NCBI RefSeq assembly: GCF_013167455.1
Contig: NZ_CP038328.1
From: Escherichia coli O157:H7
Lineage (GTDB): Bacteria > Pseudomonadota > Gammaproteobacteria > Enterobacterales > Enterobacteriaceae
Direction: 5' to 3' (one strand)
Length of the DNA: 64,000 nt
The notes beneath the pieces were generated by a model. The model worked only from the letters and a program-made list of their open reading frames with translations. It made no database searches and was not told the DNA's origin. Position numbers and translations under genes: made by a program. Shown piece after piece: positions 49,400 to 50,827 of this stretch (position 1 is the first letter of the stretch; the number at the start of each line of letters is the position of its first letter).

Positions 49400-50827
49400 A
49401 TGAGCGATAAAAAGAAGCGCAGTATGGCGGGTTTGCCGTGGATCGCGGCGATGGCCTTCTTCATGCAGGCACTTGATGCCACTATTCTGAATACCGCCTT
49501 ACCCGCAATCGCTCATAGCCTTAATCGTTCTCCTCTCGCGATGCAATCAGCCATCATCAGTTATACGCTGACGGTGGCGATGCTTATTCCGGTAAGCGGA
49601 TGGCTAGCCGATCGCTTCGGTACGCGTCGCATTTTTACCCTTGCCGTGAGTCTGTTCACATTGGGTTCTCTGGCCTGCGCACTTTCTAATTCGCTACCAC
49701 AGCTGGTTGTCTTCCGGGTTATTCAGGGGATAGGCGGCGCAATGATGATGCCTGTTGCTCGGCTGGCCTTACTGCGCGCTTATCCTCGTAATGAACTTCT
49801 TCCAGTATTGAATTTTGTCGCCATGCCGGGTCTGGTGGGGCCAATTTTAGGCCCCATTCTTGGCGGCGTGCTGGTCACCTGGGCAACCTGGCACTGGATA
49901 TTTTTAATCAATATCCCCATAGGTATTGCGGGCCTTCTTTACGCGCGCAAACATATGCCCAATTTCACCACCGCACGACGCAGATTCGATATCACTGGCT
50001 TTTTGCTGTTTGGCCTCAGCCTTGTTCTCTTCTCAAGCGGAATAGAGCTATTCGGGGAAAAGATTGTCGCCAGCTGGATTGCCTTGACGGTAATTGTCAC
50101 CAGCATCGGGTTACTGCTTCTCTATATTCTCCATGCACGACGCACGCCAAACCCATTAATTTCATTAGATTTATTTAAAACCCGCACTTTCTCGATCGGT
50201 ATCGTAGGCAATATTGCAACCCGTCTGGGGACCGGCTGTGTACCGTTCCTTATGCCATTAATGTTACAGGTAGGATTTGGTTATCAGGCGTTTATTGCTG
50301 GCTGTATGATGGCACCGACAGCGTTAGGTTCCATTATTGCAAAATCGATGGTTACCCAAGTCTTACGTCGTCTGGGCTATCGCCATACATTAGTGGGGAT
50401 CACGGTGATTATTGGGCTAATGATCGCTCAGTTCTCTTTGCAATCACCGGCAATGGCAATATGGATGCTGATCTTGCCGTTGTTTATATTAGGGATGGCT
50501 ATGTCGACGCAGTTTACCGCGATGAATACCATCACACTTGCCGATCTGACCGATGACAACGCCAGCAGCGGTAACAGTGTTCTGGCGGTCACGCAGCAAC
50601 TGTCTATCAGTTTAGGCGTAGCTGTAAGTGCGGCCGTCCTTCGCGTTTATGAAGGAATGGAAGGCACAACGACTGTCGAACAATTCCACTATACGTTTAT
50701 CACAATGGGCATTATTACTGTTGCTTCAGCAGCAATGTTCATGCTTCTGAAAACAACCGATGGTAATAATTTGATCAAAAGACAGCGTAAATCTAAGCCG
50801 AACCACGTTCCATCAGAATCGGAGTAA
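49400..50827 (+). CDS. hsrA: MFS transporter (putative drug:H+ antiporter)
   Basis: 475 aa; 14-TM MFS pattern with motif-A-like [11 protein letters not shown]. Confidence 0.85.

Follow-up and report, generated by a model that had tools for sequence, protein, structure and literature searches.

Convergent genes that share the last nucleotides of their coding regions form a well-described class in bacteria. In E. coli, 58 convergent overlaps were counted by Lillo & Krakauer (2007), who ascribed their origin to the loss of a stop codon and found the phase 123:132 to be the commonest among convergent overlaps of at least 5 nt (PMC2174442). On the level of RNA, 165 convergent transcript overlaps were listed by ExcludonFinder in at least 50% of 58 RNA-seq samples of strain MG1655, and the pair rbsR-hsrA is one of them (PMC12288877). 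Also close to the locus considered here are the antisense transcripts ended by Rho in the tables of Adams et al. (2021; PMC7815308) and the convergent pairs with little or no spacer that are served by a bidirectional intrinsic terminator, a GC-rich hairpin flanked by A and T tracts.

The 3' ends of hsrA and rbsR, which meet at positions 50793..50827 of the window (the whole 64-kb stretch of DNA that was analysed), have in common with the class of Lillo & Krakauer the opposite strands, the shared 3' ends, the phase 123:132 and, as it appears, one lost stop followed by reading-on, and the relatives of the pair carry the 4-bp tetramers TTAA, CTAA or TTAG that are typical of the class. The stop loss at this junction would be a 1-nt deletion within the tetramer, with the stop of the partner kept, and not a point mutation; nothing essential differs. 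As in the excludons, the transcripts of two convergent units overlap; the overlap is, however, forced by the coding regions and not by long UTRs, and a mutually exclusive expression is putative here. As in very many entries of the set of Adams et al., a bicyclomycin-sensitive region lies antisense to a gene, in this case rbsR, although within that set the Rho score of the hsrA region is modest, its coverage is low, and no matching region of the rbs strand is reported inside hsrA. The bidirectional intrinsic terminators are resembled only in the convergence of genes with little or no space between them, since the hsrA/rbsR junction does not contain the hairpin with its flanking A and T tracts. 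We regard the locus as an ordinary annotated tail-to-tail overlap, which most probably arose incidentally and has been kept by inertia and weak selection, and not as a regulatory device. It is improbable that it represents a working excludon coupling the ribose operon to the YieP-HsrA efflux module, or that a functional tail of HsrA explains the reduced synonymous variation of rbsR described below.

The geometry follows directly from the sequence and the list of open reading frames. The hsrA frame (49400..50827, + strand, 475 aa) is closed by TAA at 50825-50827 and the rbsR frame (50793..51785, - strand, 330 aa) by TAG at 50795-50793, read as CTA on the + strand at 50793-50795, so that the shared segment of 35 bp, coding on both strands, includes both stop codons. 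The codon positions 1, 2 and 3 of hsrA stand opposite the positions 1, 3 and 2 of rbsR; that is, the third positions of rbsR face the second positions of hsrA, and the third positions of hsrA face the second positions of rbsR. There are thus two real coding genes on opposite strands with shared 3' nucleotides, reproducible in relatives. The initial annotation had placed a convergent overlap of 35 bp between hsrA and rbsR at 50793-50827, and this is exact to the base; its gene names are borne out by the family profile matches and by the K-12 annotation, and it was right that the overlap is not novel, since the reference annotation already contains it. An earlier stop or a different frame for either gene, which it had named as the observation that would speak against the overlap, was not found, each frame running to its first in-frame stop and the homology fixing both frames.

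The hsrA gene (synonym yieO) encodes a transporter of the MFS, of DHA2/EmrB type, as judged by its frame, the profiles and the K-12 name. The protein matches NCBIfam NF007799 (MdtD subfamily) with 458 bits at a cut-off of 426 and TIGR00711 (DHA2 MFS family) with 266 bits at a cut-off of 230, and the family profiles cover the residues 13-465 only. In all E. coli records listed, the NCBI PGAP/RefSeq name of the gene is "mdtD: multidrug transporter subunit MdtD"; because the NF007799 cut-off is passed narrowly and the K-12 gene is named hsrA, this label looks like the mislabelling of a paralogue. The true mdtD presumably sits in the mdtABCD-baeSR operon. The last hydrophobic segment of HsrA comprises the residues 432-450 and is followed by a hydrophilic stretch of 25 residues. 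In MFS proteins with 14 helices the C-terminal tail is expected to be cytoplasmic, as is presumably that of HsrA. By the alignment of the junctions, the codons 466-475 (50795..50824, + strand) constitute a C-terminal extension of 10 codons, antisense to the last codons of RbsR, which is absent in the species with an overlap of 4 bp; the proteins of these relatives align to residue ~463-466 of the query at most.

Upstream of hsrA by 22 nt, at 48685..49377 on the + strand, lies yieP, identified by its frame and annotation as a regulator of the FadR/GntR family, which is reported to be in one operon with hsrA and to activate its own transcription (PMC11340327). Most of the loci taken from draft genomes break ~0.8-1.3 kb upstream of hsrA, just past yieP, which fits an interruption of the assemblies by the conserved rRNA operon beside yieP. 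Between the 16S rRNA gene and yieP, at 48326..48577 on the - strand, there is a match to the Rfam family Ysr197 (Yersinia sRNA 197) over the full length of the model, with 84 bits against a gathering threshold of 167 (E = 2.5e-19), and this sub-threshold match probably corresponds to the leader or promoter region of the rRNA operon.

The partner on the other strand, rbsR, encodes the ribose operon repressor of the LacI/PurR family. It is the last gene of the string rbsDACBKR, which is transcribed towards hsrA, and its TTG start (51783..51785, - strand) lies 3 nt past the stop of rbsK, the ribokinase gene that is annotated, and has its reading frame, at 51789..52718 on the same strand. RbsR matches the NCBIfam equivalog NF007743 with 697 bits (cut-off 531) over the positions 1-330 of 330, and its residues 2-330, the last one included, are identical to the solved structure of the 330-aa protein (PDB 9ny7); the frame and the stop of rbsR are therefore secure. 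It is also homologous to PurR through residue 329, so that the C-terminal codons, which are the ones shared with hsrA, belong to the conserved core of the protein.

The initial annotation had further supposed the arrangement to be conserved in reference E. coli, which is correct, and the conservation reaches well beyond the species. In K-12 MG1655, rbsR is annotated at 3938227..3939219 and hsrA at 3939185..3940612, which gives the same overlap of 35 bp; it is annotated likewise in a chromosome of O157:H7 that is 100% identical to the window over 50500-51100 (601 bases), as well as in three E. coli strains that rank among the most divergent of the sample. The segment 50500-51100 was found at 95% identity or more in 5,389 of the 5,426 complete E. 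coli genomes, while coverage of the junction query was below 80% in 25 of the 5,414 E. coli genomes with a match. In the clinical E. coli JNE181771 (NZ_AP027156.1), a deletion has fused a C-terminally truncated hsrA to a C-terminally truncated rbsK with the loss of the whole of rbsR; the joint lies at 4220..4238 of the extracted locus, and both remnants are annotated as pseudogenes. Among the seven convergent pairs of coding sequences in the 64-kb window, hsrA/rbsR is the sole true overlap; spacers of 4, 24, 45, 46 and 51 nt occur as well, which shows that tight convergent junctions are common in this stretch. The shortest of these spacers belongs to asnA/viaA (window ~61860..61865), a pair that is also found among the convergent excludons of PMC12288877.

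Outside E. coli, the same overlap of 35 bp is present in 34 other species. In a comparative scan of 80 loci of Enterobacteriaceae with hsrA, one genome per species, rbsR stands tail to tail against hsrA in all 80 species with a gap that never exceeds 3 nt, and the junction takes several states. A gap of 2-3 nt is seen in Kluyvera, Phytobacter and Atlantibacter; a 4-bp overlap, consisting of the shared stop tetramer TTAA, CTAA or TTAG, in many genera, including Buttiauxella, Franconibacter, Siccibacter, Pluralibacter, Trabulsiella, Yokenella and Pseudocitrobacter; an overlap of 9 bp in Kosakonia, and of 24 bp in a single Kosakonia species; the overlap of 35 bp in Escherichia, Salmonella, Citrobacter, Enterobacter, Leclercia and Intestinirhabdus; and one of 53 bp in Lelliottia and Huaxiibacter, where the stop of rbsR has been lost too (TAG to TCG). 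The C-terminal end of RbsR falls on the same residue in every state but that of 53 bp, and the 4-bp species have an HsrA that is shorter by ~10 aa. A difference of one T separates the 4-bp junction of Pseudescherichia (AAG CCT TAA GCG) from the 35-bp junction of Citrobacter (AAA CCT AAA CCG). In a neighbour-joining tree of the two proteins HsrA and RbsR, computed with the junction excluded, restricted to Enterobacteriaceae and rooted at the midpoint, the short states are basal and paraphyletic and the states of 35 and 53 bp fall into two clades, so that the 35-bp overlap looks derived from the 4-bp state, once or twice, as far as a midpoint-rooted tree of two genes can tell. Its length is not more than chance gives: across the antisense strand of rbsR the frame of hsrA meets 24 stops in 320 codons, one per 13.8 codons on average, and therefore a run-on of 10 codons after the loss of a stop is typical of chance. 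In the 39 species that read through, the hsrA stop is likewise the first one in frame and stands at the same place.

A simple course of events would account for this distribution. The starting point may have been two genes that had long abutted and shared a 4-bp stop tetramer (TTAA, CTAA or TTAG). On the way to Escherichia, Salmonella, Citrobacter and Enterobacter, in one lineage or in several, the tetramer would then have lost 1 nt (CCTTAAG becoming CCTAAG, for instance), by which rbsR kept a stop, changed from TAA to TAG, and hsrA lost its own. The ribosome would then read 10 more codons of hsrA, antisense to the last codons of RbsR, up to the next stop in frame, a TAA formed by the rbsR codons for Leu-Thr (CTT ACT), and the extension would lengthen a tail of HsrA that was already hydrophilic. 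The transcript of hsrA, in turn, would be ended by Rho ~260 nt into the antisense strand of rbsR.

The shared bases evolve mainly as the coding sequence of rbsR, with a modest reciprocal constraint from hsrA. When the 35 sequences that share the 35-bp overlap are aligned, variation is seen in 10 of the 12 columns at the third position of rbsR against 3 of 12 at the third position of hsrA. The only difference between K-12 and O157 inside the overlap, at 50805, is a within-species instance of the same asymmetry: it is silent in RbsR and exchanges Arg and His at residue 469 of HsrA, which is Arg in K-12 and three other strains and His in the window. The constraint in the other direction is smaller. 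In the 39 read-through species, the third-position diversity of rbsR falls to 0.266 over its last 10 degenerate codons, compared with 0.476 in the 133 flanking codons (one-sided Mann-Whitney p = 0.004, for related sequences and uncorrected for phylogeny), while in the short-overlap species (n = 40) the corresponding values are 0.487 and 0.501 (p = 0.42). At the Leu codon from which the hsrA stop is formed, all 39 overlap species have CTT or CTC, as compared with 18 of the 40 short-overlap species. In the next 16 codons of rbsR past the hsrA stop the diversity is 0.455, without a reduction, and the confinement of the drop to the 11 codons read by hsrA argues for a coding or stop-codon effect and not for an effect of an RNA duplex. 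Since they cover 10-12 codons of related sequences, these tests are suggestive only. The notion of the HsrA tail as a purely neutral passenger was dropped after the test of synonymous diversity in favour of a mostly passive one under weak constraint; the reduced diversity speaks against a purely neutral extension, and the tail or the position of its stop may have some function.

As to RNA, the initial annotation held that convergent transcription of the two genes must overlap; this follows from the geometry, and the published data agree (PMC12288877, PMC7815308). The antisense interference that it had also named is a possibility only. The terminator scan of 50300-51300 returned none but a weak site at 50411-50432, inside hsrA, and the RNA folds across the junction were, on both strands, no more stable than those of shuffled sequences (z = -1.04 and -0.83), which rules out an intrinsic or bidirectional terminator at the junction. 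A hidden RNA gene at this place was ruled out as well, the Rfam 15 scan of 48000-54000 at E <= 1 having returned only the 16S rRNA and the sub-threshold Ysr197 match, and nothing at the junction. A consensus scan of 50300-51300 detected no sigma-70-like promoter site, internal antisense promoters included. With no spacer that could accommodate a terminator, and with none built into the adjacent sequence, each transcript has to terminate within the opposite gene, so that, whenever the mRNAs of hsrA and rbsR are both produced, their 3' ends are complementary.

Where the hsrA transcript ends is indicated by a Rho region on its strand, classed as antisense to rbsR, with the best position at MG1655 3938923 (-) (PMC7815308, supplementary file 2). 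The reads at this position were 102 upstream and 32 downstream without bicyclomycin, and 164 and 143 with it, which gave a Rho score of 2.78 (p = 7.6e-6) at the coarse resolution of 800-nt windows (PMC7815308). The coordinates of MG1655 and the window are colinear here, with 13 mismatches in 2274 nt, and the position maps to ~51089, ~262 nt past the hsrA stop; a 3' untranslated extension of the yieP-hsrA transcript would accordingly occupy 50828..51089 (+ strand), running antisense through the 3' coding region of rbsR to the published Rho region. A mild compositional signal is present in the RNA following the hsrA stop, the C/G ratio being 1.33-1.44 at +121..+240 versus 0.76-0.86 in the first 160 nt. 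In their Term-seq data, Adams et al. (2021) list a discrete 3' end neither for hsrA nor on the strand antisense to rbsR (PMC7815308), and in the supplements of SMRT-Cappable-seq neither hsrA nor rbsR is present.

On the rbs strand, the only signals reported within rbsR are a Term-seq 3' end (MG1655 3938325) and a Rho region (3938387), both in the 5' part of the gene, 98-160 nt inside it and at window ~51625..51687 (PMC7815308), which is a hint that transcription may stop prematurely inside the repressor gene. Further upstream, the sRNA RbsZ, which derives from the 3' end of rbsB, is predicted at window ~52734..52967 (- strand) by transfer from K-12 (rbsZ, b4804, 3937045..3937278). In the Term-seq data its 3' end far exceeds every other signal of the rbs operon, with 84,576 against 865 at the end internal to rbsR (PMC7815308), so that most rbs transcription probably halts before rbsK-rbsR. 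From the RbsZ end and the ends in the 5' part of rbsR, it seems probable that in LB little rbs transcription reaches the hsrA junction.

The alternative that survives best, rather unlikely as it is, takes the junction for a functional excludon, in which regulation would exploit the obligatory pairing of the 3' ends of the rbs and yieP-hsrA transcripts: when ribose strongly induces the rbs operon, hsrA expression would fall, or the reverse would hold, through collision of RNA polymerases or cleavage of the duplex by RNase III, and the arrangement without a spacer would have been conserved for that purpose. Such a role would agree with the close tail-to-tail position of the two genes, at a distance of 3 nt at most, that is kept in the 80 species of many genera, with the ~260 nt that the hsrA transcript goes into antisense rbsR before the Rho stop (PMC7815308), and with the place of rbsR-hsrA in the published core set (PMC12288877), where the very label implies possible regulation. 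However, the pair is one of 165, and a coding overlap forces a transcript overlap, so that the listing is no evidence of function; short convergent spacers of the kind seen at the other junctions of the window are common. The diversity of rbsR drops only in the 11 codons read by hsrA and not in the next 16, though these also lie under the transcript overlap. Coverage in LB is low, at about 100 reads per 800 nt (PMC7815308), and a large part of the rbs transcription seems to stop before the junction, at the strong RbsZ 3' end and in the Rho region of the 5' portion of rbsR. A literature search found no experiment on the hsrA/rbsR pair and no functional test of interference.

Another explanation, very unlikely in our estimation, makes the C-terminal extension of HsrA itself functional, for example as a charged motif P-S-E/K-x-E with a part in the stability, sorting or regulation of the transporter, and lets the overlap persist through selection on this tail. 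It draws on the unusual conservation of those synonymous sites of rbsR that stand opposite the second positions of hsrA, which is restricted to the overlap species, on the retention of Ser472, Glu475 and a charged residue 473 across Escherichia, Salmonella, Citrobacter and Enterobacter, and on the position of the hsrA stop, kept in 39 of 39 species. Against it, about half of the sampled genera are without the tail, and conservation is poor in the adjoining stretch of the HsrA tail, 17-20 of 20 columns being variable at each codon position. Moreover, Pro471 is forced by a Met codon of RbsR, the invariant CTG opposite Ser472 is the preferred Leu codon too, E. coli itself has either His or Arg at residue 469 by a change that is synonymous in rbsR, and the test covers 10 codons.

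That the overlap is an artefact of annotation, one of the genes ending earlier or being read in another frame without a true coding overlap, is almost certainly wrong and effectively refuted by full-length homology, the RbsR structure and the conservation across species: although the last 10 residues of HsrA lie outside the family profile and their translation is predicted from the open reading frame, stop codons are not a choice of annotation where each frame runs to its first in-frame stop, RbsR follows the solved protein and the full-length equivalog to the last residue, 465 residues of homology fix the frame of hsrA, and the arrangement recurs in the 5,389 E. coli genomes and 39 species mentioned above.

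With the incidental overlap as the preferred reading, the locus is already known, for it stands in the reference annotation, belongs to a described class and has its transcript overlap catalogued. What is added is modest and consists mainly in the rbsR-like evolution of the shared bases with a small reciprocal constraint, and in the probable ending of the hsrA transcript by Rho inside antisense rbsR. For strain engineering it follows that edits in 50793-50827 alter both rbsR and hsrA. For the Enterobacteriaceae, the series of junctions, from a gap of 2-3 nt through overlaps of 4, 9, 24, 35 and 53 bp, indicates that a deletion of 1 nt within a TTAA tetramer that serves both genes as stop can lengthen one protein while the other is left unharmed.
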